In this document: piece after piece, positions 12,895 to 60,814 of the stretch
Numbering within the stretch: the stretch's first letter is position 1
How the letters are laid out: each line of letters opens with the position of its first letter
Source: Gemmatimonadales bacterium
Lineage (GTDB): Bacteria; Gemmatimonadota; Gemmatimonadetes; Gemmatimonadales; GWC2-71-9
Reading direction: 5' to 3'
Assembly (NCBI GenBank): GCA_036398175.1
Contig: DASWHL010000137.1
Location: forward strand, 8,295 to 72,294
Length of the DNA: 64,000 bases
Program-made: the position numbers and the translations under genes
Notes under the pieces: generated by a model
What the model saw: only the letters and a program-made list of their open reading frames with translations
Told to the model about the DNA's origin: nothing
The model's database searches: none

Positions 12895-12907
12895 ACGAGA
12901 GGACCCC

Positions 12908-15784
<2,877 letters not shown>

Positions 15785-15799
15785 AGCGGCAGCGGCGGG

Positions 15800-16546: not shown

Positions 16547-16562
16547 ACGCCCGCGGGAGGGC

Positions 16563-33903: not shown

Positions 33904-35269
33904 GCTGGAAGAAGCGCCCGAACACCCGGACGCCCTTCCAGATCTGTTCCACACTGAGCTTCTCATCCGGCGCGTGCAGCCGATCATCCGGCAACCCGAT
34001 GCCGGAGAGAATCACGGGCGCGCCGGCCTTGCCCAGCTCGGGGACGATCGGGATGGAGCCCCCGGACCGGACCGGCACGACGCCGCGGCCCTCTACTTCC
34101 TCGAACGCGCGGCTGAGCAGCTCGATGGGCGCCGACTCGACGTCCACCACAACCGGGTCCGCACCGTGGACGAACGTGAGGGTCACGTCGGCGTACGCCG
34201 GAGACGCGGCCTTCACGGCCCTGGCGAGCAGCTTCTGCACCTTCTTCTCGGTCTGCTTCGGAACCAGCCGCAGGCTGATCTTGGCGGTGGCCTCGGCGGG
34301 AATCACCGTCTTGGCCCCCTCACCGGTGAACCCGCCCTTGATGCCGTGGATCTCCAACGTCGGGAGCGCCCAGAGTCGCTCGAACACCGAGTACTTCGTG
34401 AGCCCCGTGAGCGCCTTCGCGCCCACCTCCTCGCGCTGGAACCGCCGCTCGTTGAACGGCAGCTTGCTCCACGCGTCACGGACCTGCTTGGGCGGCCGCT
34501 CCACCAGCTCGTACAGCCCCGGGACCTTGATCCGGCCGTCCGGACCCTTGAGCGCGGCCAGGATACGAGCCAGCGCCTCGTGCGCGTTGGGCGCGGCACC
34601 CCCGTACAGCCCGGAGTGCAGGTCCGCCCGCGCCGTGCGGACCTTGAGCTCCGCGTAGCAGAGGCCCCGCAGGCCGGTCTCCACCGCGGGCCAGCCGGGC
34701 GCGTAGTACGGCGTGTCGGCAACGAGCACCGCGTCCGCCCGCACGCGCTCCGGCTCGCGGCCGAGGAGGTCGAAGAGCACCTTGCTGCCGCTTTCCTCCT
34801 GGCCCTCGATGAGGAACCGGAGATTCACGGGCGCCGCACCCTGCGCCAGCACGGCCTCGAACGCCTTGATGATCGCAAACGTCTGGCCCTTGTCGTCGGT
34901 GGCGCCGCGCGCGTAGATGTTCCCGTCCCGCACGGTCGGCTCGAACGGCGGGCTGGTCCACTCGTCCAGCGGGTCCGGCGGCTGCACGTCGTAGTGGCCG
35001 TACACGAGCACCGTCGGCTTCCCCGGCGCGGGCGGCCCCTCGGCCCAGACCACCGGATGCGTGTCGCTGGCGAGGTATTCCACTCTCGGGCAGCCGAGCG
35101 CGCGCAGGTGATTCCCCACCCACTCCGCCGCCCGGCGGCAGTCGCCGTCGTGCGCGGGATCCGTGGAGATGCTCGGAATCCGGAGCAGCGCCTTCAGCTC
35201 CTCCACCATGCGGTCGCGATGCACCGCCACGAACGATTCGAAACCCGACATGATGATGTCCTTTTGCAT
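33887..35269 (-). CDS. M20 family dipeptidase/metallohydrolase
   Basis: Real part of track ORF 33887..36631. ATG 35269 (MQKDIIMSGFESF; ATG 35251 is an alternative). YGHYDVQPPDP, ARGATDDKGQ, EGQEESGS. Confidence 0.85.
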   Translation of the reverse strand: MQKDIIMSGFESFVAVHRDRMVEELKALLRIPSISTDPAHDGDCRRAAEWVGNHLRALGCPRVEYLASDTHPVVWAEGPPAPGKPTVLVYGHYDVQPPDPLDEWTSPPFEPTVRDGNIYARGATDDKGQTFAIIKAFEAVLAQGAAPVNLRFLIEGQEESGSKVLFDLLGREPERVRADAVLVADTPYYAPGWPAVETGLRGLCYAELKVRTARADLHSGLYGGAAPNAHEALARILAALKGPDGRIKVPGLYELVERPPKQVRDAWSKLPFNERRFQREEVGAKALTGLTKYSVFERLWALPTLEIHGIKGGFTGEGAKTVIPAEATAKISLRLVPKQTEKKVQKLLARAVKAASPAYADVTLTFVHGADPVVVDVESAPIELLSRAFEEVEGRGVVPVRSGGSIPIVPELGKAGAPVILSGIGLPDDRLHAPDEKLSVEQIWKGVRVFGRFFQLMGTR

Positions 35270-35377
35270 GGTGCGGACTGACGGCCTGGTGACGCCAAAA
35301 TCTAGCCGGACGTCCCGGGACTTGCCGACTTCGCCGGCAACGCGTCTATTCGAGCCGTCCGACGGAGGAGGCCCAGC

Positions 35378-36634
35378 ATGTCCGCCATGAGATCCACGAT
35401 GGCCACCGGGGCCATCGTTCGCAGCCAGTTCGACACGGCCGCGGACCTTGCCCAGCTCGACGTCGCCCAGCGCCGCCTGCTGTGCGGGCCGTTCCGGTCC
35501 GTGACTGTGGACGTGCCCGTCCGCATGGACGATGGCCGCATCGAGGTGTACCGTGGCTACCGGATCCAGCACAGCGGCGCGCGGGGACCGTGCAAGGGCG
35601 GCATCCGGTTCCACCCCGAGGCCGACCAGGAAGAAGTGCTCGGCCTCGCCACCACCATGACCTGGAAGACCGCCCTGGCCGACGTGCCGTTCGGCGGCGC
35701 CAAGGGCGGCGTCCAGGTGGACCCGCGGGCCCTCTCCCCGCGCGAGCTGGAAGCCCTGACCCGCACCTTCACGGGACGCATCTCCCTGATGCTCGGGCCC
35801 TACCGCGACGTCCCGGCGCCCGACATGGGCACGAACCAGCAGGTCATGGCCTGGCTGCTCGACGAGTACTCGAAACGGAACGGCTACACGCCCGCCGTCG
35901 TGACCGGCAAGCCCATCGCGCTCGGCGGCTCGCTCGGCCGCGAGGAGGCCACCGCCCAGGGCGTCGTGTACGTCATGGAAGCCTACGCGGCCGACGAAGG
36001 GCTCCCCATCGAGGGCAGCCGGGTCGTCATTCAGGGATTCGGCAACGTGGGCGCGCAGACCGCCCGGCTGCTGCACGAGCGCGGCGCCCACGTCATCGCC
36101 GTGACCGACGTGGACGGCGGCCTGCACCACGACACGGGCCTCGACGTCCCCAACCTCTTCGAGCACGCGTACCGCCAGCGCCGCCCGGTGGCCGAGTTCC
36201 CCGGCGGCGATCCGCTCACCAACGACGCGCTCTGGCGGGTCCCCTGTGACTGGCTCATTCCGGCCGCCCTGGGCGGCGTCATCTGCAAGGACCGCAACGT
36301 GGACGGCCTCGAGTGCCGGGTCGTCGTGGAAGCGGCCAACGCGCCTACCACGCCAATCGCGGACAAGGAGCTGGAATCCCGCGGTATCCCGGTGCTGCCG
36401 GACTTCCTGGTCAACGCCGGCGGCGTGATCGTGAGCTACTTCGAGTGGGTGCAGAACCTCCAGCAGCATCCGTGGACCTTCGAGCGGGTCAACGAGGAGC
36501 TGCACCGCAAGATCACCCACGCCTATCGTATCGTGCGGGACCTCCGCGCCCGGACCGACGCCTCCTGGCGCACCGCCGCCTACGCCATCGCTCTCCAGCG
36601 CGTGGCCGAAGCCGAGCGCCTCCGAGGCCACTAG
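35378..36634 (+). CDS. gdhA: Glu/Leu/Phe/Val dehydrogenase (glutamate dehydrogenase)
   Basis: 418 aa. GGAGGAGG SD. KGGIRFHP, PFGGAKGG, and NAD fold QGFGNVG. Confidence 0.95.
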   Translation: MSAMRSTMATGAIVRSQFDTAADLAQLDVAQRRLLCGPFRSVTVDVPVRMDDGRIEVYRGYRIQHSGARGPCKGGIRFHPEADQEEVLGLATTMTWKTALADVPFGGAKGGVQVDPRALSPRELEALTRTFTGRISLMLGPYRDVPAPDMGTNQQVMAWLLDEYSKRNGYTPAVVTGKPIALGGSLGREEATAQGVVYVMEAYAADEGLPIEGSRVVIQGFGNVGAQTARLLHERGAHVIAVTDVDGGLHHDTGLDVPNLFEHAYRQRRPVAEFPGGDPLTNDALWRVPCDWLIPAALGGVICKDRNVDGLECRVVVEAANAPTTPIADKELESRGIPVLPDFLVNAGGVIVSYFEWVQNLQQHPWTFERVNEELHRKITHAYRIVRDLRARTDASWRTAAYAIALQRVAEAERLRGH

Positions 36635-37722
36635 GGAACGTTGATCAGCGCGTCGAGGACGGCAAACGGGTCGCGGGTCCCCGCGGTGTCGAGGGCGGCG
36701 GCCATCCGCTCCATGACCTGGCGGACACTGTTGCCGTTCTGCTGGTAAAGGGCCTCGAACCGGGCGAGCCGCGTGCGGTAGATCGTGGTCGCCACCACGG
36801 TGGCGTTATTTAGCGTGTTGGCCGCGAGCCGCGCGCCGTCGTAGCGCTCGAGCGTCCCGTCCAGGCCGCTCGCGAGCCGCGCCCGCGCGCCCCCGTAGTG
36901 GTGGGCGCGCACGGAATCCAGCGCCGGGCCCGCAGGATGCCGCGCGTACGCGGCGCGCAGCGAGTCCACCAGGGCCGCGTAGAACGCGCCCAGCCGGATC
37001 TCGTCCCGCCACACGCCCGCCACCCAGGCCACCGCGGCGGCGTCTCCCCGGGCCCGGAAGAACGCCTCCGCGCCGCGATACCCCACGAAGTGCGCCAGGC
37101 TCTCGTCGAAGGGCGTGGCGTTCGGCACGTAGAGTGTCGTGTGCGTCATCTCGTGGATCACGGTCTCGACGACGGCCGCCCGATGGCCGCGCACCGTCGT
37201 CGAGAGCAACGGGTCCTTGAACCAGCCGAGCGTCGAGAACGCCGAAGCGGGGCGGAGCGACGTGTCATACCCCCGGGCCTCGAAGTCCCGCGCCGCGGCC
37301 TCGGCGCGCGCCCGCGAAAAGAAGCCGCGGTACGGCACCGCGCCCACGATGGGGAACCACCAGCGGTGAGGATCGAGTGAGTGCTTGGGCGCGGCCGACA
37401 GCACCAACACGAGCGTGTCGCGGCCCACCTCGGCGAACGTCGTGAACGACGGGCCGGGCGTGAGCCCGAGCGCGGTGTCCGCGAAGGCGCGGGCCTCGAT
37501 CACGAGCCGCATGTTCTCGCGCCAGGCCGCCGGCAGCGTCGAATCCGCCAGGGCCTCGGTGAGGGGGCGCCGCCGCAGCATCAGCCGGCCTTGCTCGTAC
37601 GCGCCGCGCAGCACGAACCGGACATCCGAAGAGAGTGCCACGGCCAGCACGAGAACGATCACCACGGCGGCGGCCGCCCAGGCCGCGAGGCGGCGCCAGG
37701 CGCGCCACCCGGAGACCCTCAC
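36631..37722 (-). CDS. predicted zinc aminopeptidase (PF10023/DUF2265-like)
   Basis: Track ORF trimmed to GTG 37722 (GTGA overlap with the upstream stop). N-terminal TM segment. FSTLGWFKDPLLSTT, then HExxH in VIHEMTHTTLYV, then FDESLAHFVG. Confidence 0.7.
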   Translation of the reverse strand: MRVSGWRAWRRLAAWAAAAVVIVLVLAVALSSDVRFVLRGAYEQGRLMLRRRPLTEALADSTLPAAWRENMRLVIEARAFADTALGLTPGPSFTTFAEVGRDTLVLVLSAAPKHSLDPHRWWFPIVGAVPYRGFFSRARAEAAARDFEARGYDTSLRPASAFSTLGWFKDPLLSTTVRGHRAAVVETVIHEMTHTTLYVPNATPFDESLAHFVGYRGAEAFFRARGDAAAVAWVAGVWRDEIRLGAFYAALVDSLRAAYARHPAGPALDSVRAHHYGGARARLASGLDGTLERYDGARLAANTLNNATVVATTIYRTRLARFEALYQQNGNSVRQVMERMAAALDTAGTRDPFAVLDALINVP

Positions 37723-38654
37723 ACCCGGAACCGGAGCCCGATCCGCTGCTCGCCCCCGCCGAGCAGGACCGTAGGCGTGTAGGCGTAATCCACGGTGAGC
37801 GCGCCCATCGTGACGCTCAAGCCCCCCGTGAAGCGGGAGAGCGCAGCATCCGCCGGGCGCGAGCCGTACGCCCCGCGCGCCAGAACGCCCACCCCCTGCA
37901 CCACGATCCCGCCCTCCAGGCCCACGATCAGCCGCGTGGCCGCGGCCTGGGGCCACTGGAGCTCGATCGTGGACATGAGGCGAAACGTCTCGAGCGGATC
38001 CACGTAGTTCATCGTGAACCCGAGCCGCGTGAGCCGGGGAAGCGCCATGGCGCTCTCGCCGTCCCAGTTCCCGCTCACGTTCTGCACCGCAAACCCGAGC
38101 GCCGCGAGGTCGAACAGCGCGATCGCCACCCCCACGTCGCCCGAGAGGCCGTGCGCGCGCAGGTCCGCCACCCGCTGGTCCACGGTCTTGACGGTGCCCC
38201 CGAAGGCCAGCAGCCCGAGCCGATAGATCAGGGTGCCGCTCGCGAGCAGCTCCCGCGCGGCCACGCTGGCGCCGGTCGGTAGCCCCGTCACGCCACCCGT
38301 GGCCGGGTCCGGCACCAGTTCGGGCTCGCTGCCGTAGTCGAAATGCTGGAGGCCCAGCCCCAGGTTCAGCTGGCCGATCCGGATGCCCATCGCGCCGCTG
38401 GCCTGATGCGCGTCGAACGGCGCGCCGTGGTAGCCCGCCTCGAGGGCGAGGCCGCGTACCAGCGCCAGGCCGGCGGGGTTGGCGAACACGGCGCCCGCGT
38501 CCCCCATCAGCGCCGCACCGGCCCCGCCGAGCCCCGCGGCCCGCACGGTGGCCGGATTCTGGAGCAGCTGCGGCCCCAGCAGGGACTGCGCGGCCACGGC
38601 CGGGGCCAGGAGCGCCGACAGCGCCAGGGCATGTGCGCCGATGGCGGCCCGCAC
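37719..38654 (-). CDS. PorV/PorQ (UPF0164)-superfamily outer-membrane beta-barrel, short form
   Basis: 311 aa. Signal MRAAIGAHALALSALLAPAVAAQ. GGAGAALMGDAGAVFANPAGLA near the N-terminus, LTVDYAYTP near the C-terminus, alternating beta pattern, ends GLRFRV. Confidence 0.6.
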   Translation of the reverse strand: MRAAIGAHALALSALLAPAVAAQSLLGPQLLQNPATVRAAGLGGAGAALMGDAGAVFANPAGLALVRGLALEAGYHGAPFDAHQASGAMGIRIGQLNLGLGLQHFDYGSEPELVPDPATGGVTGLPTGASVAARELLASGTLIYRLGLLAFGGTVKTVDQRVADLRAHGLSGDVGVAIALFDLAALGFAVQNVSGNWDGESAMALPRLTRLGFTMNYVDPLETFRLMSTIELQWPQAAATRLIVGLEGGIVVQGVGVLARGAYGSRPADAALSRFTGGLSVTMGALTVDYAYTPTVLLGGGEQRIGLRFRV

Positions 38655-38665
38655 GACACGTACCG

Positions 38666-40864
38666 CTACCGCACCCGGATCACGTTCAGCCGGCCGACCA
38701 CGCTGGTGGGCAGCGCGGTGCCGCCGGGCTGGGTCAGGCGCAGCGTGAAGCCGCCGTCGCCCGGCGCCTGCCGCAGGCGCAGGTACTCGCCCGACCCCGC
38801 GTGCAGCGTGCCGTCCAGTTGCACGGTCAGGGGGGACGCGATCGGCGGATCAATCGGGAACGGCTTGGTGAAACGGGACGGCAGCTGGGTGTTCAGGCTG
38901 GCGTACGTCGTCCGGAATGCCCAGGTCGTGTACCGGAGCCGGGACGGCGCCGTGAACCCCGGCAGGTCCGAGACCCAGTTGGCCAGGAACCACTGCGTGA
39001 TCAGCCGGTCGAACGGCACGCCGACGACCGTGGCCACGTTGGTCGCCCCGGTCAGGGAGGTTTCGACGAGACGCCGGGTGGCCCCCGGTCCGTACTGGTC
39101 GAGCAGCCAGCGCAGGAACAGCCACGCCGCCCCCCGCTCCTCCAGCGTCCCGGTCCCGGCCAGCGGCAGCGCGAACGACGCTCCCGGATTGCTGAGATAG
39201 AGGTAGCCGTTGTAGAGGTCGCCGATCGCGAACCGCGAGAACAACGTGTCCTGCCCCTTCGCCTCGAAGTGCAGGCCCGCCAGCTCCTCCGAGATGTGCG
39301 ACAGCCCTTCGTTCAGCCAGAGGACTTCCGACGACGCGTTCCGCACCAGCACGTGCTGGTAGTAGCTGATCATGTGCTGGAACTCGTGGATGAACGTCAC
39401 CGGCACCAGTCGGCGCACGCCGTCCGAGCTGAGCGTGCACGTCACCGTGCCCGCGGGATCCGGCGCGACGGCGTAGAACACCTCGCCGCGATTCGAGCGC
39501 GGGTCCGTCTGGAACGCCGGATCAATGTCAATCCCGAAGAAATAGCCCGTGATGACCGACGACGCGCACTGCTCCGTGGGCGTCAGGCGGTTGACCTCCG
39601 GCGAGAACAGCACGATCACCACGCCGTTCCGGTCCGCGTCCGACTCCGAGCCGAACGCCGTCGTCGCCACGCCGTACAGGTCCGAGTCGAACAGCGCCCC
39701 GAGCGCCTGGTAATCGGTGGCGGTGAACCCGCCGGCGGGCGCCGCCTGGTCCACGAACAGCGCCGCGTGCGCGCCGACGTACTCCGCCCGCCCCGACACG
39801 GTCGCGAAATCGTTCACGCTCGAGCAGGGGATGTTGTTGCACACCTCGAACGACCGCGTGTCGCCCACCTTCACGGTGGGCGTCTCGACGGGCGAGAGCT
39901 GCACGGCCGCCAGCGCGGACCGTGGACGCAGCGCGGCGTCCGCCTCCTGGCGGCGCAGCTCGTCGTGGAAGCGGGCGGCAAACGGCAGCGGCGTCTGGCC
40001 GGCCCCCGCGCTGCGCTGCTGCACCACCACCACCACCGCCGGGTCGCCCGAAAGCCGGAACGCCGAAGACACGCCCGCCACGCCGGAGGCCGACTGCGGC
40101 GCCACGAGGTACTCCACCGTGTCCGCGCCGGCCGAGGGGAAGGTCACGCATCCCGGCAGCTGGCCCGGATCAACGGCCGCATACTCGCCTGCCCCGAGCG
40201 TCACCGGTGCGAGCGTGCTCGCGTACGTGCCCGACAGCGCGTTGGACTCGGCGCCGGCCGCCCGGGCGCGAATCTGCACGATCCCCGGCACCAGGCAGGG
40301 CGGCACCACTACCGTGAGCGACGTCGCCAGCCCCGACACGACGTGGGCCGGCGCGCCGGCGATGTGCACCTCCGCCCCCGTGAGCGCGCTGCCCGCGAGC
40401 ACCACGGTATCCCCGGCCGTGAAGTCGCTCGGTGTCACCGACGTGAGCTGCGGGGGCGCCGTCGCCGTAGCCGTGAGGACCACCGTGGCGTTCGGCGCGT
40501 CCGCGGGGGAGGCCTGCACGCGGTACGTCCCCGCCACCGGCCCGAGCCGCAGGGCCACTTCGGCGCGGCCGTTCCCGTCCGCCACGGTCGCCGTGTCCGA
40601 CAGGACTGCCCCGCTGCCCTCGATCACCTGCCACCGCACCCGCGCGCGCGGCACCGCGTCGTTGGACGTGGCCCGCGCGACCACCGCCAGCGCCGCGGGC
40701 AACGGCGCGCCCGCCGGCGCGCTCTGCCCGTCCGAGCTGGCCACGACATCGAGCGACGCCGCACTCGGCAACGGGTCGCTGCCGCCGCAGGCGGCCGCCA
40801 CGGTCACCCCGGCAAGGAAGAGCCACCGGGCGCCCCGGGGCTCGCGAACGGCGGTCATCGTCAT
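38666..40864 (-). CDS. secreted HExxH metalloprotease with Ig-like (Big/IPT) domains, M30(hyicolysin)-like
   Basis: ATG 40864: MTMTAVREPRGARWLFLAGVTVAAACGG (signal, possible lipobox). IPT-like PQLTSVTPSDFTAGDTVVLAGSAL. Catalytic FIHEFQHMISYYQH...WLNEGLSHISEE. C-terminal beta segment SGEYLRLRQ...GRLNVIRVR. Confidence 0.7.
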   Translation of the reverse strand: MTMTAVREPRGARWLFLAGVTVAAACGGSDPLPSAASLDVVASSDGQSAPAGAPLPAALAVVARATSNDAVPRARVRWQVIEGSGAVLSDTATVADGNGRAEVALRLGPVAGTYRVQASPADAPNATVVLTATATAPPQLTSVTPSDFTAGDTVVLAGSALTGAEVHIAGAPAHVVSGLATSLTVVVPPCLVPGIVQIRARAAGAESNALSGTYASTLAPVTLGAGEYAAVDPGQLPGCVTFPSAGADTVEYLVAPQSASGVAGVSSAFRLSGDPAVVVVVQQRSAGAGQTPLPFAARFHDELRRQEADAALRPRSALAAVQLSPVETPTVKVGDTRSFEVCNNIPCSSVNDFATVSGRAEYVGAHAALFVDQAAPAGGFTATDYQALGALFDSDLYGVATTAFGSESDADRNGVVIVLFSPEVNRLTPTEQCASSVITGYFFGIDIDPAFQTDPRSNRGEVFYAVAPDPAGTVTCTLSSDGVRRLVPVTFIHEFQHMISYYQHVLVRNASSEVLWLNEGLSHISEELAGLHFEAKGQDTLFSRFAIGDLYNGYLYLSNPGASFALPLAGTGTLEERGAAWLFLRWLLDQYGPGATRRLVETSLTGATNVATVVGVPFDRLITQWFLANWVSDLPGFTAPSRLRYTTWAFRTTYASLNTQLPSRFTKPFPIDPPIASPLTVQLDGTLHAGSGEYLRLRQAPGDGGFTLRLTQPGGTALPTSVVGRLNVIRVR

Positions 40865-40965
40865 GGAAACCCTCGGGTAGCGAGCAGGTTCGCCGGGCCG
40901 TCCCGGTAGGCGCAAAAACGCGCTAACTCAATATTCTACAAGGAAATAGCAACGTTTGGGCCGCT

Positions 40966-40995
40966 TTGACAAGGGCGGCGCTCCACGTGTAGTTT
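40966..40995 (+). promoter_or_regulatory. candidate sigma70-type promoter for dnaE
   Basis: TTGACA (40966..40971), 18-nt spacer, TAGTTT (40990..40995), preceded by an AT-rich stretch. The -10 ends 9 nt before the dnaE ATG. Confidence 0.4.
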
Positions 40996-41004
40996 ACCCA
41001 ACCC

Positions 41005-44000
41005 ATGGCGTTCGCTCACCTTCACACGCACTCCGAGTACTCCCTCCTCGACGGCGCCAACCGTATCCCGGACCTGGTGGCGCGCGTGAAGGAACTCGGC
41101 ATGGACAGTCTGGCCATCACCGACCATGGCAATCTCCACGCCGCGTGGTCGTTCTACGAGGCGGCCAAGGCGGGGGGCATCCGTCCGATCATCGGCTGCG
41201 AGGCGTACGTCGCCTTCGGGTCGCGCCTCGCACGCGAGAAACCCGCGGACGCGCCGGCGCAGTACTCGCACCTCGTGCTCCTCGCCCGGAACCGCGCGGG
41301 CTACCGGAATCTCGTCAAGCTCTCCTCCATCGGCTATCTGGAGGGCTTCTACCGGCGGCCGCGCATTGACAGGGAAGTCCTGTTCGAGCACCGCGAGGGC
41401 CTGATCGGTCTCGCCGCCTGCCTTTCGGGCGAGATCGCGCTCTATCTCCGGCAGCAACAGTACGACCGCGCCCGCCGGTCCGCCGCGTGGTTCGCCGAGA
41501 CGTTCGGGCCGGACGGCTTCTGGCTCGAGGTGCAGGACCACGGCATTCCCGAGGAACGCATCGTCCGGGAGGGCATGTTCCAGCTCGCCGAGGACCTCGG
41601 CCTGCCGGTCGTCGCCACCAACGACGCCCACTACCTGCGGCGCGAGGACCACGAGGCGCACGACTGCCTGCTGGCCATCGGCACGGGCAAGGACCTCGAC
41701 GATCCGAACCGGTTCCGGTTCACCGGCGAGGAGAGCTACATCAAGACGGAAGACGAGATGCGCGCGCTCTTCCCCGACCGGCCCGACGTGCTCGCCAACA
41801 CCCAGCGGGTGGCGGACCTGTGCGAGTTCGACTTCGAGAAGCGCTACTACCTCCCCAGGTTCCCGCTGCCGGAAGGCTACGACTCCGACAACGCGCTGCT
41901 CGTGGAGCTGGCGACCCGCGGGGCCGAGCGCCGGTACGGCACGCCGCTCCCCGAGCGGGTGGCCGAGCGCCTGCGCTACGAGCTCGACGTGATCGTGACG
42001 ACCGGGTACGCCGGCTACTTCCTGATCGTTCAGGACTTCATTCAGGCGGCGCGCGACCGCGGCATCCCGGTCGGGCCCGGGCGCGGCTCGGCCGCCGGCT
42101 CGCTCGTGGCCTACGGGCTCGGGATCACCAACGTGGACCCGCTCCGGTTCGATCTGCTCTTCGAGCGGTTCCTGAACCCCGAGCGGATCTCCATGCCGGA
42201 CATTGACGTGGACTTCTGCTTCGAGCGGCGGGGCGAGGTCATTGACTACGTCCGCGAGCGCTACGGCCGGTCGAGCGTCGGCCAGATCATCACGTTCGGC
42301 ACGCTCAAGGCGCGGGCCGCCCTGCGGGACATCGCGCGCGTGCTCCGCGTGCCTCCCGCCGACGCCGACCGCATGGCCAAGCTCGTGCCGTCCGGCGCCG
42401 CGTTCGCGCTGTCGGTGGCCGACGCGGTGGACAAGGTGCCGGAGTTGCGCGAGCTGGTCCGGACCGACGCCACGGCCGCGCGGGTCGTGGACCTGGCGCA
42501 GCGGATCGAAGGGCTGGCCCGCCATGCCTCGGTGCACGCCGCGGGCATCGTGATCGCTCCGGGCCCCCTCGACGAGTACGTGCCGGTCTGCACCCAGCCG
42601 CAGCAGCGTGGCGCGGACGACGACGACGTCCGCATCACGCAGTTCGACATGATCGGCCTCGAGAAGGTCGGCATGCTGAAGATGGACTTCCTGGGCCTCC
42701 GCACGCTCACGGTGATCCACGACGCCGTGGCCATGATCGCGGAGCGTCGCGGCATCACCGTGGACGTGGACGCGCTGGACCTCGACGACCCGGACGTGTA
42801 CGCCTTGCTCCGGACGGGGCGCACGGCCGGCGTCTTCCAGTTCGAGTCGCCGCTCGCCACCGACATGCTCCGCCAGATGCGCTGCGACCGGTTCGACGAC
42901 CTCGTGGTCACCAACGCGCTCATGCGGCCGGGCCCGCTCGATTCGGGCATGCACCTGGTGTTCATCCGGCGCAAGCGCGGCGAGGAGCCGGTCCGCTATC
43001 CGCACCCCGCCCTCGAGGACGCGCTCCAACCCACGTTCGGCGTCATCGTGTACCAGGAACAGGTCATGCGGATCGCCAACCTGCTCGCGGGCTTCTCCCT
43101 CGCCGAGGCGGACGTGCTTCGCAAGGCCGTGGGCAAGAAAGACCCCGAGCTGATCCGCAGGGAGCTGACCCGGTTCAGCGACCGGGCCGCGGCCCTGGGG
43201 CACGACCCCCGGGTCATCCAGGACCTGGCGGCCCAGATCGAGACGTTCGGCCGCTACGGATTCCCCAAGGCGCACAGCGTCGCCTACTCCGTCATCTCGT
43301 TCCAGACGGCCTGGCTCAAGGCGCACTATCCGGCCGAGTTCATGGCCGCGCTGCTTTCCTCGGAAATCGGCAACACCGACAAGGTCGTCGCCTACATCAA
43401 CGAAGCGCGCGAGCTGGGACTGCGCGTCCTCCCGCCCTCCGTGAACGAGTCCGGCTGGAAGTTCACGGTGACCGGCGACACCGAGATGCGCTTCGGGCTC
43501 GGCGCTGTCCGGAACGTGGGGCGCGGCGCCATCGAGTCCATCCTGGAGGCGCGCGGCGCGGACGGCCCGTTCACCGGCCTCGCGGACCTCTGCGACCGGA
43601 TAGATCTCCGGCTCGGCAACAAGCGCGTCCTGGAGTCGCTCATCGCGGCCGGCGCGCTGGACCAGCTCGGCGGGCATCGCGCGCAGCTGCTCGCGGCCCT
43701 CGACACGGCGTTGCGGGAGGCGCAGCTCCGCCAGGCGGAGCGGGAGGCCGGCCAGGGCACGCTGTTCGGCGATGGCGGCACCGTGTCCGGGCCGGTGGCC
43801 CCCGTCCCCCTGCCGGAGGTGCCGGCCTGGTCCGAGACCGAACGGCTGGCCAGGGAAAAGGAGGTCGTCGGCTTCTTCATTTCCGGCCACCCGCTCGATC
43901 GGTTCCGCGAGGAGGTGGCGCTGTTCGGGACGCGTACCACCGGCACGCTGGGGCAATGGAGCGAGCACCAGGTAACGGCCGCGGTCGTGGTGACGGGCGT

Positions 44001-51150: not shown

Positions 51151-51151
51151 C

Positions 51152-51880: not shown

Positions 51881-51908
51881 CAGCCAATCTCCGATGCGTT
51901 CTGAGCCC

Positions 51909-51944
51909 GGGGGGTGGGGCGCCGAGGGTGGCACCCCACCCCCC
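51909..51944 (-). other. intercistronic GC hairpin between PorV-like and small-barrel genes
   Basis: 11-bp stem GGGGGGTGGGG / CCCCACCCCCC with a 14-nt loop, in the 73-nt gap. No U-tract. Confidence 0.5.
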
Positions 51945-51953
51945 CCGCTCTGG

Positions 51954-53060
51954 TCAGTTACCACCCAACTCGAACGAGAAGACCTGCACGTTCTGCAATT
52001 CGCCCATGCTGGTGTACGCGTAGTCGAAGCTCAACGCGCGCCCGAAGACCGGCAGGCGCAAACCGCCGCCGAACGCCATCCCGTGGCTGAAGCTGCGGAA
52101 GTCCTCGTCGCTGCGCTCGTTCACGAACTTCTTGCCCGCCCGGAGAAACACGAACTGCCGGACGTTCACTTCGAGCCCGACCATGGACTGGAGATCCGTG
52201 TCCACGGCATCGTTCAGATCCACCGCGAGCTTCATCCCGACGCTGCTGCCGGGAGAGAAGAGGGCGTCGGGCGCCCCCATCAGATCGCTCACCACCGAGA
52301 ACCGGAACGTCATCGGGAGCTGGTAGCTCTGGACGGCGTAGTTCACCGGCTGGGCAACCGGGAAGGCCTCGGGCGTCGTAACGCGCCGCTTGGTGAGCGC
52401 CCCGGTCATGGCCGCCGAGTTGCCGATGTTCTGGAGCGACGCCCCGATGGACAACCCGTACAGGCCCGTATTGAACATCGTACCGAAATCCACGGCCCAC
52501 CACGACGCCTGGGCGTCCGTGAGCCCCTCCTGGATGACCTTGCCGCTCGCGCCAACCATGAGGCGGTCGGTCAGGCGGCGGCCGTAGTGCAGACCGAGGA
52601 CGGTGCCCGTGTAGTCGAACACCGGGCCGAACGTCGGGCTGTCACCGGCCGGGAAGTCCTCGGAGGTCCGGAAGATGTCGCCGGACGAGAAGTTGATGTA
52701 GGACACGCCCAGCGCCCCGCCGAAGACCGGAATGGCCACGGCGGCGTAGGTGTGTTTGATGTCCAGGTCGGCGTACAGCGGCGAGTACGAGAACGCCACG
52801 ACGAGGCCGTCGGTGGAGCCGATGCCCGCCGGGTTCCAATACATCGCCGTCGCCCCGGACGCGAGGCCCGTGTAGGCCCCGGCGAGCGCCTGCGCGCGCG
52901 CCCCGACGCCGATCTCGAGGAAGTTGGCGCCGCGCGCCGCCACCCGCGTGGTACCCTCGTCCACCTGTGGAATGAGGAAACTACCCTGCGTCTGGGCGGA
53001 CAACCCGCCGCCGCAGAGGAGCGTCAACGCTACGATGGCCGTAATAGGTCGCATCTTCAT
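51954..53060 (-). CDS. PorV-like (PorV/UPF0164 family) outer-membrane beta-barrel
   Basis: 368 aa. Signal MKMRPITAIVALTLLCGGGLSAQ. GARAQALAGAYTGLASGATAMYWNPAGIG near the N-terminus, LSFDYAYTSMGEL..VFSFEL near the C-terminus. Confidence 0.75.
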   Translation of the reverse strand: MKMRPITAIVALTLLCGGGLSAQTQGSFLIPQVDEGTTRVAARGANFLEIGVGARAQALAGAYTGLASGATAMYWNPAGIGSTDGLVVAFSYSPLYADLDIKHTYAAVAIPVFGGALGVSYINFSSGDIFRTSEDFPAGDSPTFGPVFDYTGTVLGLHYGRRLTDRLMVGASGKVIQEGLTDAQASWWAVDFGTMFNTGLYGLSIGASLQNIGNSAAMTGALTKRRVTTPEAFPVAQPVNYAVQSYQLPMTFRFSVVSDLMGAPDALFSPGSSVGMKLAVDLNDAVDTDLQSMVGLEVNVRQFVFLRAGKKFVNERSDEDFRSFSHGMAFGGGLRLPVFGRALSFDYAYTSMGELQNVQVFSFELGGN

Positions 53061-53067
53061 GCCCCCC

Positions 53068-56000
53068 TTATCGCGACTGACCGCGGATGACGACGAACTT
53101 GCCGCGGGCCGTCACCGGTGCGCTGGTGGGGTCCGTCGGATTCGACGGGGCCGTTATGACCCAGATATAGAGGCCGCTGGCGATATCAATGTCCTCGCGC
53201 GACTTCAGGTTCCAGAACAGATCCCCCGTCCCGGTGAGGTCGTCCGCGGTCCACGAGATCTGCTGGACGAACTGGCCAGCGACCGTGTACACCCGGAGCG
53301 CACCCGTGGGAGGCACGTTGGTGAACAGCACCCGTGAATCGGCGATGGTCGTCTGATAGCTCGAAAACACGACGAACGGGTTCGGCACGACGCGCACGGC
53401 GGCGAGCGTGGAGTCCGTCACCTCCGTGATTTCCGTGCCCGCCACGGGGGCCGTCAGGTCGAACACCCAGCGGTCCGTCGGGCTGAAGCCGAGGTTGTAC
53501 TCGAACTGGACGCTGTCCCCGGCACTGGTCGCGAGCCAGCCCGACGAGCCCAGGATGTTGGGGCCGAGCGGATTGCAGAACGGCGGGTTCGGCTGGTTGC
53601 AGCCGATCGTGGCGCCCGTGAACGTTACCTGGGGGTTGGTCACCCTCAGGGGTTGCAACGAGCCGTCGAGCACGACGTTCGCGCCCTCCGTCGAGTCGCG
53701 GGTGACCGTTTCGATGAAGTACAGTAGATCACCGGGCACCCACTCGTCCGCGGGAATCCCGACGCGGAGCGTGTCCGCGTTCCGGCCGAGCCGGTAGGTG
53801 TTGGCGACGCTCGCACCCTGCGTCATCGTCCGCCGCACCATGGCGATGGACACGTCCCGCCCGAACGTCGTGTTGCGGATCGTGAACGGCGCCTTGACCG
53901 CGACCAGGTCCTGCTGGGTCACGACCCCGGCCGCCAGCCCGGCATCGCTGAGCAACGTTGCGGTGGCCGCGTCGGTCAAGCCCGTGGACGCCACCGGCCG
54001 CCCCTGGAGCGCGGCCGTCAGCTCGGCCTCGGAACTCGCCCCGAGCGACGAGAGGCCGCGCGGCAAGCCGAACGCGTCCCCAGCCCATGAGATCATGTAC
54101 TGACCGACCCCAAACGGGCCGCGGACGGAGTTCTGTTCACGCCACTGCGCCATGAACCGGTCCACGTTGCCGCGCGGGATCACGACCGCCGTGTCGGGCA
54201 GCCCCAGCAGTTGTCTCGTGGCGGCCCCTCGGTACGCCCGCTCCGTCGCCGAGTTGAAGGCCCCGGCGGTGGCATTGTTCGCCGCCACCGTGAAGCCCGG
54301 GAAATCCGCCAGCGCGAACACCCCGGTGGGCGTCGCGGCGTTCCCCGTGAGCGTGCGGCTCGCGAAAATCGGCGTCGAACCCGCCGCCACCACGAAGCCG
54401 AGTGCGTCGTACACGGTTTGCAGCCGGCGGAAGTTCCCCACCGTCGTGGCCGCTGAACTGCTGGCCGCTCCGGACACCGGGAACTCGTCCGCCCCGTCGC
54501 GGAACAACGTGTCGCGCCGCACCACGGTGGACGTCCCGCCCGGCGCCGCGTTCACGACGCGCGCCAGGATGACCCGCGTGCCGCACACCGTCCCCGCAGG
54601 GCCGCAGGCATCGTCCGCGATGATGCTGTCCCGCTCGACCGTGATCCGGTTGCCGAACGCGATCTGATAGTTGCCCGGCGTCGGGGCGTCGCTCACGCCC
54701 ACCGACAGCGGTACGGTCGCCTCCCCCAGAGCGGAGAACGAGATCTGCGCCGCCCGGTAGCCCGCGGCGCGGCTGGCCGGGATGTACACCGACAGCACGT
54801 TCGGGTCCGACGAAGACGAGCTGAGCGTGTTGCGGATGGTCGGCGCGAACGAGATGACCGTGGGCCGGTCGTCCTCGTCAATCACCTGAAACTCGGCGCC
54901 ACGGCTCTTGCCCACGACCGTGTAGACGTACGAGCGGCCGGGCGTGACCGTGTTGTCCGTGAACACGTTCGGCACGTCGCCGCTGTTGGCGTCCACGTCG
55001 AAGATGGCGTACGCCTGCCAGCCCAGACCGATGGATTGCCCGTTGACGTCCGTGACCGGATCCCCGACGCAGTTCCCGTCGCCGGTCCACGTGTTGCCCC
55101 CGTTGCACGACTTGTAGATCTCGATGGCCTCGAGGTTATCCGCGGCGCGCGCGGCCATCTCGTCGGCCAGGCCCGGGTTCTTGGCCCGCAGCGTCGCGAA
55201 GGACGGGCTCGTTCGGACGTCCTCCGAGAGCTTCAGGAGGAACTGGTCCACCCACCGCTCCGGCGCGTCGTCGAAGAAGAACGTGACCTCCGGATCCTCA
55301 CCCAGTTCCCCGATCGTCCCGGCCGTCACCTGCGTGGACGCGATCGTGACCGGCGGCGGGGCCTCGGGTGACAGGAAGAAGTTCATGTAGAGATCAATGG
55401 CGGCGTTGATGGACGCCCAGGTGCGGACCGAGTCGGCATCGCCCACGAACGCCACGAACCACGACGTCGAGTCCCCCGCCGCCAGCGGGAACGGCCCGGC
55501 CGCGAGGATCCCACCCACGTTGCCGTAGGCGTTTTTCTGCCCGCCGGGGAACGTATCCGCCGACGCCACGACGCACCCCTGATCCGCGCACGAGTCGTAG
55601 TACAGCGTGTCGGGGGTCCCGTCCTTGTTGTAGTCCCACGTCGCCGCCGGCGGTCCCTGCTCGCCCGGCACGTACTTGTTGAACTTGCCCCGCTCCGTCG
55701 GGAAACCCTTGTTGCGGAACGTGATGAACGCCTCCCCGGGCGTGAGCGCCGCGGGATCGCGCCCGTCCAGCACGTTGGCCTCGGTGGAGGAGATCATCCC
55801 GAACGAGCGCTTGTCGTTCACGTTGTGCGTGGTCGCCCAGCAGCTGCCGAAGCCGCACTGGTGCCCGTGATTGAACGTGATCGTGTCGCCCACCAGCGGA
55901 TGGCCCGTGTTGTAGAACGGCGACGCCGGGTTGGAGAAGTGCTTGTTGCGGAGGTCGCCGATCGGGCTCTTGAGCACGATGATGGCGTTCCCGCCGTTGT

Positions 56001-57246
56001 TCATCCCCATGCCCGCGCTGGCGGTGCACCCCGGAACCCCGGCCGGTTGCCGCGCGCCCTCCGAGCACGGCCCCCCCACCGTCACGTGGCTCTGGTGGTA
56101 CAGGGCCGTGGAGATCTCCGGCATGTAGTAATTGGAAAACGCCTGCCCACCACCAGGGCCCGCGCCGCCGGTCCCCGGCATGAAGCCGAGGTAGAGCGAG
56201 TCGTAGTCGAGCCCCACACCATAGACGTCCTCGGACCGGTTGATGACGGTCGCGCGGATGAACACGGTGCTCGCATACGTCGGGACGCCGAAGTTGAACG
56301 CCTCGAACCGCCAGACGAGTCCCATGGGCCAGCCGGTCACCGTTGGGTCTCCCGATCCACCCGGGATCACCGACCCGTACGAGCCCAGCACCTCGGTGAA
56401 GTGGTCGGAGGTCTCGCCGTACGTGCTGAAGTTGGTCCCCATGAAGGGACCGGCCCGTTTCAGGCTGTCCGGCACCTGCCAGAAGTCGAACCGGAACTCC
56501 GTGGGATCGGCATCGAAGAGGGCCTGGTACCCTTCGAGCGCGGTGGTCCGATCGCCACCCCAGACGGGCGCCGCCGGGGCCCCCGGCCACGTGTCGGGGC
56601 AGTTGCTGGAGGCCAGCAGCGGCGCGCCGGACGCAAAGTTCCCGAAGTTCCCGTTGCCGAAGCCCCGGTGGTCGCGGCAACTGCCGTCGGACACCGCCGT
56701 AACGCCGCTGAACAGCTTCGACAGCGTCCCGTCGCGTGGGCCCCACTCGTACCGGCCCGAGAACAGGCCGAAATTGCTCAGATAGGTGTACCCGCCGCCC
56801 CTGGCGTTGGCGAGGGACGGGACGGCTTTCCGCGCCCTGGCCCAATCCGAGGCCGGGGCACCCGCCGCGAACAGCACCTCGAAGAACTGGAACGTGATCG
56901 TACCGCCGCCGCGCGCCGCCCGCACGTTCCAGTAGCAGAACCCGGAGAGCGGGTTGTCGCACGGCGAGTAGTTGTCGAGCGCGTACCCCAAGTTGCCGGA
57001 CGCGTGCATGCCGGCGCCGGCGCCGTCGGCCCCGCCGAACAGACGGAATCCCCGCTCCCGCCGCGCCTGGGAAACATTGAAGTCTCCACCCGGCGCCCCG
57101 GCGGCGTCGAGGATCACGTCGCCGGTCAGGTCGCCCCGGCGCTGTGCCACCGCGTCGCCGAACGACAGGACGGAGAGCGCCCCGACGCCCAGCGCAAGCC
57201 CGGCCCGCCGGACGCGCTGCATCCACGATCGAATTCGCATAGTCAT
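53068..57246 (-). CDS. giant secreted protein (1392 aa) with T9SS type-A CTD / FlgD-Ig-like C-terminal domain
   Basis: ATG 57246 with AGGAG 6 nt upstream. Signal MTMRIRSWMQRVRRAGLALGVGALSVLSFGDAVAQ. 16 Cys arranged as 8 close pairs. One Asp-box-like SCNGGNTW. C-terminus VRVVPNPFVVFS..LRVYTVAGQFVQQI..ASGLYIWVITA..ARGKFVVIRGQSR. Confidence 0.8.
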   Translation of the reverse strand: MTMRIRSWMQRVRRAGLALGVGALSVLSFGDAVAQRRGDLTGDVILDAAGAPGGDFNVSQARRERGFRLFGGADGAGAGMHASGNLGYALDNYSPCDNPLSGFCYWNVRAARGGGTITFQFFEVLFAAGAPASDWARARKAVPSLANARGGGYTYLSNFGLFSGRYEWGPRDGTLSKLFSGVTAVSDGSCRDHRGFGNGNFGNFASGAPLLASSNCPDTWPGAPAAPVWGGDRTTALEGYQALFDADPTEFRFDFWQVPDSLKRAGPFMGTNFSTYGETSDHFTEVLGSYGSVIPGGSGDPTVTGWPMGLVWRFEAFNFGVPTYASTVFIRATVINRSEDVYGVGLDYDSLYLGFMPGTGGAGPGGGQAFSNYYMPEISTALYHQSHVTVGGPCSEGARQPAGVPGCTASAGMGMNNGGNAIIVLKSPIGDLRNKHFSNPASPFYNTGHPLVGDTITFNHGHQCGFGSCWATTHNVNDKRSFGMISSTEANVLDGRDPAALTPGEAFITFRNKGFPTERGKFNKYVPGEQGPPAATWDYNKDGTPDTLYYDSCADQGCVVASADTFPGGQKNAYGNVGGILAAGPFPLAAGDSTSWFVAFVGDADSVRTWASINAAIDLYMNFFLSPEAPPPVTIASTQVTAGTIGELGEDPEVTFFFDDAPERWVDQFLLKLSEDVRTSPSFATLRAKNPGLADEMAARAADNLEAIEIYKSCNGGNTWTGDGNCVGDPVTDVNGQSIGLGWQAYAIFDVDANSGDVPNVFTDNTVTPGRSYVYTVVGKSRGAEFQVIDEDDRPTVISFAPTIRNTLSSSSSDPNVLSVYIPASRAAGYRAAQISFSALGEATVPLSVGVSDAPTPGNYQIAFGNRITVERDSIIADDACGPAGTVCGTRVILARVVNAAPGGTSTVVRRDTLFRDGADEFPVSGAASSSAATTVGNFRRLQTVYDALGFVVAAGSTPIFASRTLTGNAATPTGVFALADFPGFTVAANNATAGAFNSATERAYRGAATRQLLGLPDTAVVIPRGNVDRFMAQWREQNSVRGPFGVGQYMISWAGDAFGLPRGLSSLGASSEAELTAALQGRPVASTGLTDAATATLLSDAGLAAGVVTQQDLVAVKAPFTIRNTTFGRDVSIAMVRRTMTQGASVANTYRLGRNADTLRVGIPADEWVPGDLLYFIETVTRDSTEGANVVLDGSLQPLRVTNPQVTFTGATIGCNQPNPPFCNPLGPNILGSSGWLATSAGDSVQFEYNLGFSPTDRWVFDLTAPVAGTEITEVTDSTLAAVRVVPNPFVVFSSYQTTIADSRVLFTNVPPTGALRVYTVAGQFVQQISWTADDLTGTGDLFWNLKSREDIDIASGLYIWVITAPSNPTDPTSAPVTARGKFVVIRGQSR

Positions 57247-57278
57247 GACTGCTCCTATGAATTCTCGGTCTGGGAGCG

Positions 57279-57302
57279 GGGGCGGCCCCACGCGGCCGCC
57301 CC
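57279..57302 (-). other. intercistronic GC hairpin between TonB-dependent barrel and giant cargo gene
   Basis: 9-bp stem GGGGCGGCC / GGCCGCCCC with a 6-nt loop, in the 69-nt gap. No U-tract. Confidence 0.5.
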
Positions 57303-57315
57303 TGCCCGTGACGTC

Positions 57316-60417: not shown

Positions 60418-60655
60418 CAGAAGTTTCTCCTTAAAAGGAACACAGGAGACGGTGGAAGGCCGACAACCAGGAATCGCTAAGCCCCTCCTTCCGAACGCAG
60501 GGCGCCGGCCGGCCGGCCGACGCGACGACACCGCGAACTCCATTCCGACTACCCGCCCGGCGCGGAACGCTGCCGAACAGGCTCACGGAACTGACGTTCG
60601 TATCATGCAGTGGCGCGAAGCGCCACGTTCTGGTCCCGCCAGGAAGGGTCGGTGC

Positions 60656-60789: not shown

Positions 60790-60814
60790 TCCGGGGCGCG
60801 CTATAGTGCCTGCG

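Follow-up and report, generated by a model that had tools for sequence, protein, structure and literature searches.

A dnaE-linked gene cluster of Gemmatimonadales encodes a predicted M30-type lipoprotein protease, a divergent PorV/PorQ-family barrel and a PF10023 peptidase

Results

Organization of the locus

The 64,000-nucleotide stretch of Gemmatimonadales DNA analysed here (the window) carries three adjoining genes, all on the minus strand, and an ORF check confirmed them at the positions given by the first-pass annotation (Table 1). As read from the DNA, the TAG stop codon of the protease gene is followed after 11 nt (cggtacgtgtc) by the GTG start codon of the barrel gene, while the TGA of the barrel (37721-37719) shares a GTGA overlap with the GTG start of the PF10023 gene (37722-37720), so that the gene order and spacing first described hold. 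The protease strings FIHEFQHMI, WLNEGLSH, SGEYLRLRQ and GRLNVIRVR and the barrel strings ANPAGLA and DYAYTP, all reported earlier, were recovered in the translations, the latter pair in the 311 aa read from 38654 to 37719. The protease ORF itself is also as described, with a length of 732 aa from the ATG rather than 733 aa. The program's ORF list begins this gene farther upstream, at TTG 40915.

Because GC at the third codon position is 0.87-0.93 in the three gene frames and conserved homologues of each protein number in the hundreds, we regard these as genuine genes and not chance ORFs. Long plus-strand ORFs over the region (e.g., 38633-40909) were rejected as antisense artefacts of 72% GC. 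A scan of the locus for promoters and terminators gave nothing informative.

Table 1. Features of the locus and of the second protein-barrel pair, in window coordinates.
Feature	Position	Strand	Description	Basis
PF10023 gene	36631..37722	-	363 aa; HExxH metallopeptidase (DUF2265, "putative aminopeptidase") with N-terminal membrane anchor or signal	
Barrel gene	37719..38654	-	311 aa; type I signal peptide; divergent PorV/PorQ-family 14-stranded outer-membrane barrel	
Hatch-like motif of barrel, N-terminal	38457..38549	-	VRAAGLGGAGAAL-GDAGAVFANPAGLA; most conserved stretch of the barrel	Alignment
Protease gene	38666..40864	-	ATG at 40864, stop at 38666-38668; 732 aa; predicted lipoprotein, M30-like (lugdulysin/hyicolysin-type) zinc metalloendopeptidase	
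C-terminal beta segment of protease	38669..38863	-	aa 668-732, ends RLNVIRVR	No detectable CTD
Zinc site of protease	39308..39388	-	H493-E-F-Q-H497 and E519 of WLNEG	Alignment A2 and lugdulysin match
Two Ig-like domains of protease	40253..40693	-	Big_1, ~aa 58-131; IPT/TIG, ~aa 138-204	Pfam and Foldseek
Signal peptide of protease with terminal lipobox	40787..40864	-	TVAAA-C26-GGS	Sequence ...LAGVTVAAAC/GGS
Divergent intergenic region	40865..41004	.	A+T-richer, shared with dnaE	Sequence
dnaE	41005-44484	+	Divergently upstream of the protease, as in nearly all related loci	
Second pair	51954..57291	-	1407-aa secreted protein, then PorV_fam barrel	Profile scores

The protease

When the protease family profile was compared with PDB sequences, lugdulysin (7bb8) was matched at E 7.1e-32, and a Foldseek search with the AF2 model (mean pLDDT 89.6) returned 7bb9/7bb8 at E 1e-14, with TM-scores normalised to the target (TMt) of 0.66-0.69. 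Alignment A2 shows no variation at H493, E494, H497, W516, L517 and E519, and the zinc residues line up with the HEYQH...WLNEALS site of lugdulysin. The Pfam M30 model (PF10460) does not match the window protease and matches 1 of 28 family members (E 0.0019). On the strength of the lugdulysin matches we assign the protein as a divergent M30 (lugdulysin-like) zinc endopeptidase, which is more specific than the earlier "HExxH protease" and flags an M30-like clade outside the coverage of current Pfam models.

The Big_1 and TIG matches of the window protease fall under the Pfam thresholds; at E<=0.01, Big_1 is found in 24/28 and TIG in 18/28 members of the family, and by Foldseek the Ig-like region resembles intimin and the Bacteroides SGBP-B surface lipoproteins. 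Cys26 is kept in at least 90% of 28 diverse homologues (alignment A2) and a lipobox-like motif is present in 66 of 78 genome loci. The protease is thus a predicted N-terminal lipoprotein and, because of this conserved cysteine, not a classical T9SS cargo: its signal is of the lipoprotein type and not the Sec type I expected of T9SS CTD cargo.

The C-terminal beta segment, previously thought reminiscent of a CTD, is itself well conserved, the ending [PA]RLNV[IV]R[IL][RK] being near-invariant among 78 loci and R730 invariant in alignment A2. Pfam gives nothing for the isolated tail even at E<=10, NCBIfam nothing for the whole protease at E<=1, and hhalign of the tail against the two CTD-like tails of this analysis yields probabilities of 0.2% and 1%. 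Against PDB sequences, the tail profile matched no CTD structure and the profile of the C-terminal half matched nothing. By these searches the protease has no detectable T9SS CTD, which, together with the lipobox cysteine, speaks against the earlier reading. DSSP assigns four strands to the last 65 residues, with further strands at residues 228-273 of the AF2 model, whereas a T9SS CTD is described as a seven-stranded 3+4 sandwich (PMC11285876). The terminal strand and its invariant arginine are retained in homologues where no barrel adjoins (L081-L083, L086 and L088), and we accordingly discarded the RLNVIRIR strand as a barrel-recognition signal.

The barrel and the PF10023 peptidase

The placement of the barrel in the PorV/PorQ/UPF0164 (FadL-fold) superfamily, which the first-pass annotation had suggested, is borne out at several levels. 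The window barrel matches NCBIfam PorV_fam (NF033709) at E 3.5e-13 with 49.8 bits, under the curated cut-off of 90, and PorQ at E 5e-8; its positional orthologues score 84-111 bits against PorV_fam, and all 50 of the next-nearest relatives match both models (best PorV_fam E 3.3e-64). UPF0164 matches 7 of 23 relatives and TIGR03519 (PorP/SprF-like) matches 2 of 50, weakly, while Pfam Toluene_X does not match the window barrel. The AF2 model (pLDDT 77) has 14 strands, and its best Foldseek match is 8gl6_F from a T9SS substrate-bound complex (E 9e-9; TM-score normalised to the query, TMq, 0.68), followed at lower TM-scores by TodX/FadL. Model and Foldseek together give a FadL-fold 14-stranded barrel with an N-terminal plug segment, and we assign the protein, from profile scores and the predicted structure, as a divergent PorV/PorQ-family member with a FadL/PorV-type barrel. 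In its hatch-like motif A45, A48, G51, A53, F57, P60 and A64 are invariant; AF2 renders this stretch as short helices at low confidence, and we take it to correspond to the NPA-containing hatch of FadL-family barrels.

The downstream gene, annotated earlier as a DUF2265-type peptidase, is clearly one by its match to Pfam Aminopep (PF10023; E 9.5e-79, 265.5 bits against a cut-off of 25, profile positions 2-309 of 322), and its product carries an HEMTH motif; "aminopeptidase" is a predicted name, and we found no solved relative.

In the second pair of the window, the barrel (51954-53060) clears the PorV_fam cut-off with 130.7 bits against 90, and the tail of the 1407-aa protein is weakly CTD-like (PorZ-CTD E 4.7e-4, PorU-CTD 1.2e-3, TIGR04183 8e-3). 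Aligned as the first-pass annotation had proposed, the two window barrels prove to be remote homologues (BLASTP E 6e-4; hhalign 90%, E 1.7e-6). Among 23 window ORF products scanned with Pfam and/or NCBIfam, none matched a core T9SS component.

Conservation and gene neighbourhood

From 196 relatives, 80 Gemmatimonadales loci were retained. Within this set the protease lies directly before the barrel in 78/78 loci that cover the upstream side, with a median of 88 nt (range -4 to 184) separating the protease stop from the first barrel codon in the alignment. Aminopep follows the barrel in 62/80 loci; 14 lack it there, and 4 could not be read at this point. The protease-barrel pair adjoins dnaE in about 80 Gemmatimonadales genomes, and the neighbourhood of dnaE, gdh, an M20 peptidase and lipB is syntenic over the order.

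At about 30-35% identity, one locus (L092) has M30, barrel, Aminopep and Tricorn-like genes in succession, with called coordinates that overlap by 4 nt per junction, and another at similar identity (L090) has the same gene order. The pairing of protease and barrel is not obligate; L091 has the barrel and Aminopep without the protease, and L086 and L088 have the protease and Aminopep without the barrel. On two other contigs (L089 and P0195) an S8 subtilase stands directly before the barrel, which is therefore repeatedly sited beside envelope proteases; the tail of the L089 subtilase is a borderline T9SS type-A match (TIGR04183 22.7 bits against a cut-off of 23; FlgD_ig E 3e-5). A TonB-dependent receptor, likewise a plugged barrel for import, comes after a pair of M30 lipoprotein paralogues in a single distant lineage.

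In a mirror-tree/partial Mantel analysis that regressed out dnaE, the residual covariation of distances was highest for barrel and protease (partial r 0.39-0.43). The gdh housekeeping control reached a partial r of 0.29 with p 5e-4, the same p as for barrel and protease, and since this control responds as well we do not use covariation as a specific barrel-protease link.

Discussion

The identities of the three genes, the lipobox of the protease, the fold and family of the barrel and the tight packing and conservation of the operon are established. We propose, with a probability of roughly 0.42, that the cluster is an envelope-proteolysis operon conserved in Gemmatimonadota, divergent from dnaE, whose barrel docks one or more proteases at the outer membrane. 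The first gene would supply a lipid-anchored M30-type zinc endopeptidase in which the two Ig-like domains lie between the anchor and the catalytic domain. The small divergent PorV/PorQ-family barrel would serve the protease(s) of the operon as a cognate dock in the outer membrane, keeping or presenting them on the cell surface as in PorQ-PorZ, PorV-PorU and BamG-BamH, and the membrane-anchored PF10023 metallopeptidase would trim peptides in the periplasm. That barrel and protease touch, that the protease is exposed at the surface and that degradation proceeds in this order are our inferences. FadL-fold barrels that hold surface proteins or lipoproteins have precedents (PMC12578637, PMC10202324, PMC9143113). 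The protein-degradation theme raised in the first-pass annotation suits the conserved gene context, in which S8 and Tricorn-like peptidases are inserted in the clusters of relatives. Counted against docking are the adjacency, which is partly inherited gene order (the dnaE, gdh, M20 peptidase and lipB synteny), and the dispensability of each gene (L091, L086, L088 and the 14 loci without Aminopep). We know of no lipoprotein export signal defined for Gemmatimonadota.

The barrel could instead act as a FadL-type channel that imports the products of an endopeptidase working outside, to be finished by the periplasmic PF10023 enzyme and, in relatives, the Tricorn-like one. In favour are the gene order, which parallels such an outside-to-inside pathway, the FadL/TodX transporters that rank next in the structural comparison, and the hatch-like motif with the NPA, where conservation in the barrel is strongest. 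That motif, however, is common to the whole superfamily and therefore cannot discriminate between docking and uptake, and the TonB-dependent receptor that follows the two M30 lipoprotein paralogues, which also suits import, is limited to one lineage. Further, the closest sequence affinity of the barrel is to PorV/PorQ, proteins known to bind other proteins and not as channels, and known FadL channels carry hydrophobic small molecules rather than peptides. On balance, we consider peptide uptake unlikely.

A second alternative, that the C-terminal beta segment of the protease is a CTD and the barrel its private PorV-type shuttle, appears decidedly improbable. It draws on the PorV/PorQ affinity of the barrel and its best structural match to a chain of a T9SS substrate-bound complex, on relatives in which the orthologous barrel is directly preceded by an S8 protease whose tail is a borderline type-A CTD, on the second pair of a CTD-like protein and a PorV_fam barrel within the window, and on the GxY...V-I-R ending of the tail, which superficially looks like a CTD end. 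Nevertheless, the tail is unmatched by CTD models, by the CTDs of the PDB or by hhalign, and its four strands fall short of seven, with packing against residues 228-273 possible. The lipobox cysteine points to an N-terminal lipoprotein, and the terminal strand with its arginine persists in homologues not flanked by a barrel. As for the secretion system itself, Gemmatimonadetes are mentioned in passing as a group that "may" possess a T9SS (PMC11285876); in an earlier survey the system was not found beyond Bacteroidetes (PMC4793230). Of the cargo-specific PorV paralogues once suggested for this window, the barrel family and the second, remotely homologous barrel stand, but the undetected CTD, the lipobox and the non-obligate pairing speak against the idea.

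A neighbourhood that reflects nothing more than ancestral dnaE-proximal gene order in Gemmatimonadota, with no functional link among the three genes, as the wider synteny, the independent loss of each gene and the unspecific covariation test might suggest, is very improbable given that same-strand placement with 0-25-nt gaps or start/stop overlaps recurs in lineages down to about 30% identity and that the inserted cluster genes are again envelope peptidases (S8, Tricorn-like).

Work on PorV/PorQ-type barrels has dealt almost wholly with those of Bacteroidota, where they belong to the T9SS. Gemmatimonadota are widespread in soils and sediments. The operon sets a divergent member of this barrel family beside a lipoprotein protease throughout another lineage of the FCB superphylum, and we found no published description of a protease-barrel-aminopeptidase operon. 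If the barrel docks the protease as we propose, the notion of a cognate PorV-like barrel would carry over to lipoproteins, and the locus would offer a handle on surface-enzyme display in non-Bacteroidota diderms and an operon that marks protein scavenging in this phylum. A broader and doubtful extension is a phylum-wide module, new to the literature, in which divergent PorV/PorQ-type barrels are outer-membrane partners dedicated to surface proteases: the M30 enzyme with its N-terminal lipid and, for certain lineages, a CTD-tailed S8 subtilase. If true, PorV-like barrels would anchor or export cognate lipoproteins and not CTD proteins alone, and would do so outside Bacteroidota, perhaps in the absence of a complete T9SS. 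The T9SS literature already considers that individual surface proteins may have PorV-like barrels of their own (PMC10202324, PMC9143113). The concept is thus not new, and "CTD cargo plus private PorV shuttle" is only partly supported for this protease.

Comparison with known systems

In the Slam translocons of Neisseria, as in the window, the gene for a 14-stranded outer-membrane barrel lies beside that for a surface lipoprotein, there the substrate; Slam differs from the window barrel in belonging to the DUF560 barrels and in bearing a TPR domain in the periplasm, and the likeness is one of gene arrangement. The staphylococcal M30 enzymes lugdulysin and hyicolysin are secreted Gram-positive proteases. 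Their catalytic domain (PDB 7BB8, 7BB9) is homologous to that of the window protease, both having HExxH and the downstream glutamate of WLNE(A/G)LS, but the window protease differs in having a lipobox, a pair of Ig-like domains and an additional beta segment at the C-terminus. The FadL/TodX channels for hydrophobic compounds share with the window barrel the fold and the N-terminal hatch-like NPA segment, yet their TM-scores lie under that of the T9SS chain and the Toluene_X Pfam model misses the window barrel.

PorP/SprF-like barrels beside type-B CTD proteins (PG1035-PorP, SprB-SprF; PMC9143113) follow the same genomic logic, a cognate barrel adjoining the gene for a surface protein, although the window barrel is of another family and the window protease is without a type-B CTD. 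In the T9SS attachment complex of Porphyromonas gingivalis, PorQ-PorZ and PorV-PorU resemble the window pair in their FadL-fold 14-stranded PorV/PorQ-family barrel and in the proposed role, a surface protein or peptidase being held at the outer membrane. The window barrel differs in scoring under the family cut-off (49.8 against 90 bits) and in being shorter (311 aa against 367 aa, 8gl6_F), and its candidate partner is an N-terminal lipoprotein with no CTD detected, from Gemmatimonadota, where T9SS is not established. The BAM complex of Bacteroidota offers a further parallel. BamG is part of BAM and probably essential, whereas for the window barrel no link to BamA was seen and the sequence is nearer to PorV/PorQ than to FadL/Toluene_X; even so, BamG is a FadL-homologous 14-stranded barrel that binds the surface lipoprotein BamH via its extracellular loops, with the lipid anchor of BamH packed against the barrel (PMC12578637).

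Results

Three collinear genes on the minus strand at 36631-40864 encode an M30-like protease, a PorV/PorQ-like barrel and a PF10023 (Aminopep) peptidase. The protease stop codon is separated by 11 nt from the GTG of the barrel gene, whose TGA shares bases with the GTG of the PF10023 gene in a GTGA overlap. This layout, and the peptide strings quoted in the first-pass annotation, were all found in the sequence. The three ORFs are real genes, as shown by GC at the third codon position of 0.87-0.93 in their frames and by homologues of their products that number in the hundreds. Opposite real genes run antisense ORFs as long as 758 aa (38633-40909 (+), 37635-38282 (+) and others), which were rejected as artefacts of the 72% G+C of the window. 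The 3' ends of the glutamate dehydrogenase and PF10023 genes overlap by 4 nt at 36631-36634. The window holds many amino-acid and peptide metabolism genes (12746-17549, 33887-36634, 48103-49140: glycine cleavage P protein, Opp-type permease, cytoplasmic M20 peptidase, glutamate dehydrogenase, M23 peptidase), a richness that fits a proteolytic lifestyle, though the genes are housekeeping-like.

Features of the locus, of a second outer-membrane cluster (50059-60543) and of related loci; positions refer to the window unless a locus (L) is named
Feature	Position	Strand	Remarks
Protease	ATG 40864 to TAG 38668-38666	-	732 aa; read directly in DNA
Barrel	GTG 38654 to TGA 37721-37719	-	read directly in DNA
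PF10023 peptidase	36631-37722	-	start GTG at 37722; read directly in DNA
Glutamate dehydrogenase	35378-36634	+	
TonB-dependent-receptor-like protein	57316-60543	-	CarboxypepD_reg and Plug domains
1407-aa secreted protein	53068-57291	-	no Pfam domain; tail weakly CTD-like
PorV_fam barrel (second barrel)	51954-53060	-	above family cut-off
Small OMP_b-brl protein	51152-51964	-	
485-aa unknown protein	50059-51516	-	
Large TPR protein	~60600-63043	+	weak GWxTD-domain match
S8 subtilase, L089	3263-6001		
S8 subtilase, L087	3428-5989		truncated at contig edge
Tricorn-N/PD40 beta-propeller and amidohydrolase protein, L090	8013-11054		~1000 aa
Tricorn-N/PD40 beta-propeller and amidohydrolase protein, L092	6022-9108		~1000 aa
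Region of the tandem M30-like lipoprotein paralogues, L082	4244-10702		unclassified bacterium
Tandem M30-like lipoprotein paralogues, L083	4247-8322		unclassified bacterium

A profile of 28 protease homologues matches lugdulysin, the M30 zinc peptidase of Staphylococcus lugdunensis (E 7e-32), with the HExxH and WLNE(G/A)LS sites aligned, and the AlphaFold2 model of the protease (pLDDT 89.6) matched 7bb8/7bb9 at E 1e-14 with a target-normalised TM-score of 0.66-0.69. H493, E494, H497 and E519 are invariant in the homologues. The Pfam M30 model matches only 1 of the 28 family members, so the clade is a divergent M30 group that Pfam does not cover. The catalytic domain is preceded by the Ig-like domains Big_1 and IPT/TIG, similar in Foldseek to intimin and to Bacteroides surface glycan-binding lipoproteins. 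The signal peptide ends ...VAAAC, before GGS. This lipobox cysteine is shared by 90% or more of a diverse set of homologues, and 66 of 78 genome loci show a lipobox-like motif; the protease is therefore predicted to be an N-terminal lipoprotein.

The first-pass annotation had described the protease C-terminus as resembling a type IX secretion (T9SS) C-terminal sorting domain (CTD), a description that was not supported. No CTD model matched the isolated tail in Pfam at E<=10 or the whole protein in NCBIfam at E<=1, no CTD structure was found with the tail profile among PDB sequences, and hhalign against two CTD-like tails of this study gave probabilities of 0.2% and 1%. DSSP assigned four strands to the last 65 residues of the model; the CTD, by published description, is a sandwich of seven strands (PMC11285876). 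The protein ending, [PA]RLNV[IV]R[IL][RK], is strikingly conserved. A role for this strand as a barrel-recognition signal was rejected, since homologues that lack a neighbouring barrel (L081-L083, L086, L088) retain it too, invariant Arg included; the strand is better understood as a component of the protease clade's own fold.

The 311-aa barrel gave no match in Pfam; in NCBIfam it matched the PorQ model at 5e-8 and the PorV/PorQ family model (PorV_fam) at E 3.5e-13. The latter score, 49.8 bits, falls short of the curated cut-off of 90, so strict membership of that family by score does not hold. The AlphaFold2 model, built from an alignment of 23 homologues (pLDDT 77), has 14 strands preceded by a poorly modelled N-terminal segment, which holds the most conserved family motif, G-AGAAL-GDA-AVF-NPAGLA. 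Its top Foldseek match is chain F of 8gl6, a substrate-bound T9SS complex (E 9e-9, query-normalised TM-score 0.68), followed by TodX and FadL. Searching 1.84 billion representatives with a profile returned 6165 relatives at E<=1e-3; just beyond the orthologous group, the PorV_fam and PorQ models match 50 of 50 full-length relatives, and Pfam UPF0164 matches 7 of the 23 orthologues. Taken together, the NCBIfam, Foldseek and relatives' matches uphold the assignment of the barrel to the PorV/PorQ/UPF0164 superfamily proposed earlier. Residues ~96-146 (window ~38217-38369) form a hairpin of two unusually long strands, whose tip carries a conserved loop, EPE-VPDPATGG-G-PTG, with a 6-residue deletion in a subset of orthologues; this tip could be a partner-binding site.

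The third product was correctly recognized as DUF2265-type: it is a clear member of PF10023 (DUF2265, "putative aminopeptidase"; 265.5 bits in Pfam), with an HEMTH motif and a hydrophobic N-terminal anchor. A search for a solved relative found none.

Scanning one genome per species yielded 196 barrel relatives, of which 80 loci were kept, all from Gemmatimonadota and mostly labelled Gemmatimonadales. The protease lies directly 5' of the barrel in all 78 loci covering the upstream side. Nearly all related loci have a divergent dnaE further upstream. Next after the barrel, 62 of the 80 loci carry the PF10023 gene; at that position 14 lack it and 4 were unreadable. Synteny extends to gdh, an M20 peptidase gene and lipB. 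Complete Gemmatimonadales chromosomes with this locus include CP070792.1, OZ252291.1 and CP070716.1, and metagenomes provide hundreds of protease-barrel pairs. More divergent relatives beside dnaE are positional orthologues in which the cluster is modular: protease and PF10023 gene occur without the barrel in L086 and L088, and barrel and PF10023 gene without the protease in L091, a Gemmatimonadaceae genome. In L090 and L092 the order is M30, barrel, Aminopep and a Tricorn-like PD40/amidohydrolase gene, which extends the peptidase operon; in L092 the called coordinates overlap by 4 nt at each junction, including that of the Tricorn-like gene with its predecessor.

An S8 subtilase gene stands between protease and barrel in divergent Gemmatimonadota (L089, L087 and the P0195 contig), with Aminopep following in L089 and P0195. 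In L089 its stop codon overlaps the barrel start, and its tail, the one scored for T9SS type-A/FlgD-Ig-like character, is borderline for TIGR04183 (22.7 bits, cut-off 23) and matches FlgD_ig at E 3e-5. The tandem M30-like paralogues of L082 and L083 overlap by 1 base, and one of them has no Ig domains; in L082 a TonB-dependent receptor follows in place of the barrel.

The second barrel, at 130.7 bits, exceeds the PorV_fam cut-off. The pairwise alignment proposed in the first-pass annotation showed the two barrels to be homologous, but only remotely (25% identity, E 6e-4 in BLASTP; hhalign probability 90%, E 1.7e-6). The pair at 51954-57291 is a better fit to the pattern of CTD protein plus PorV-like barrel than the protease-barrel pair. 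For the nearby TPR protein, the mechanical ORF start at 59567 runs into the TonB-receptor gene, and the true start is therefore later.

Discussion

What is robust is a tightly packed, conserved operon of envelope peptidases and a divergent PorV/PorQ-type barrel. In the reading we favour, the barrel would dock the operon's protease(s) at the outer membrane, by analogy with the PorQ-PorZ, PorV-PorU and BamG-BamH precedents (PMC10202324, PMC12578637). The M30 endopeptidase would be held at the surface by the barrel, and the PF10023 enzyme would then trim in the periplasm, downstream of it. In a distance covariation test the barrel-protease residual correlation was highest (0.39-0.43); this is not relied upon, since the housekeeping control gdh gave 0.29 at an equal p value.

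Other readings compete with docking. First, the barrel could be a FadL-type uptake channel for the products of proteolysis, FadL and TodX being among its structural matches, behind 8gl6 chain F. Second, the three genes could be neighbours through inherited synteny, without function; the locus shares its conserved surroundings with dnaE, gdh and lipB, and its members are found in differing combinations in divergent relatives. Finally, there is the earlier model of the protease as CTD cargo with the barrel as its private shuttle; the lipobox and the lack of any CTD match make it less likely.

For Gemmatimonadetes, one paper goes no further than saying that a T9SS "may" occur (PMC11285876), and in a previous survey the system was confined to Bacteroidetes (PMC4793230). 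The concept of a PorV-like barrel dedicated to a particular surface protein is already in the literature, both for PorQ/PorZ and for PorP/SprF, whose partners are type-B CTD proteins (PMC9143113, PMC10202324). Each component of the operon is of a known kind, and it is the phylum-wide coupling of a PorV-like barrel with an M30 lipoprotein and a PF10023 peptidase that looks previously undescribed.
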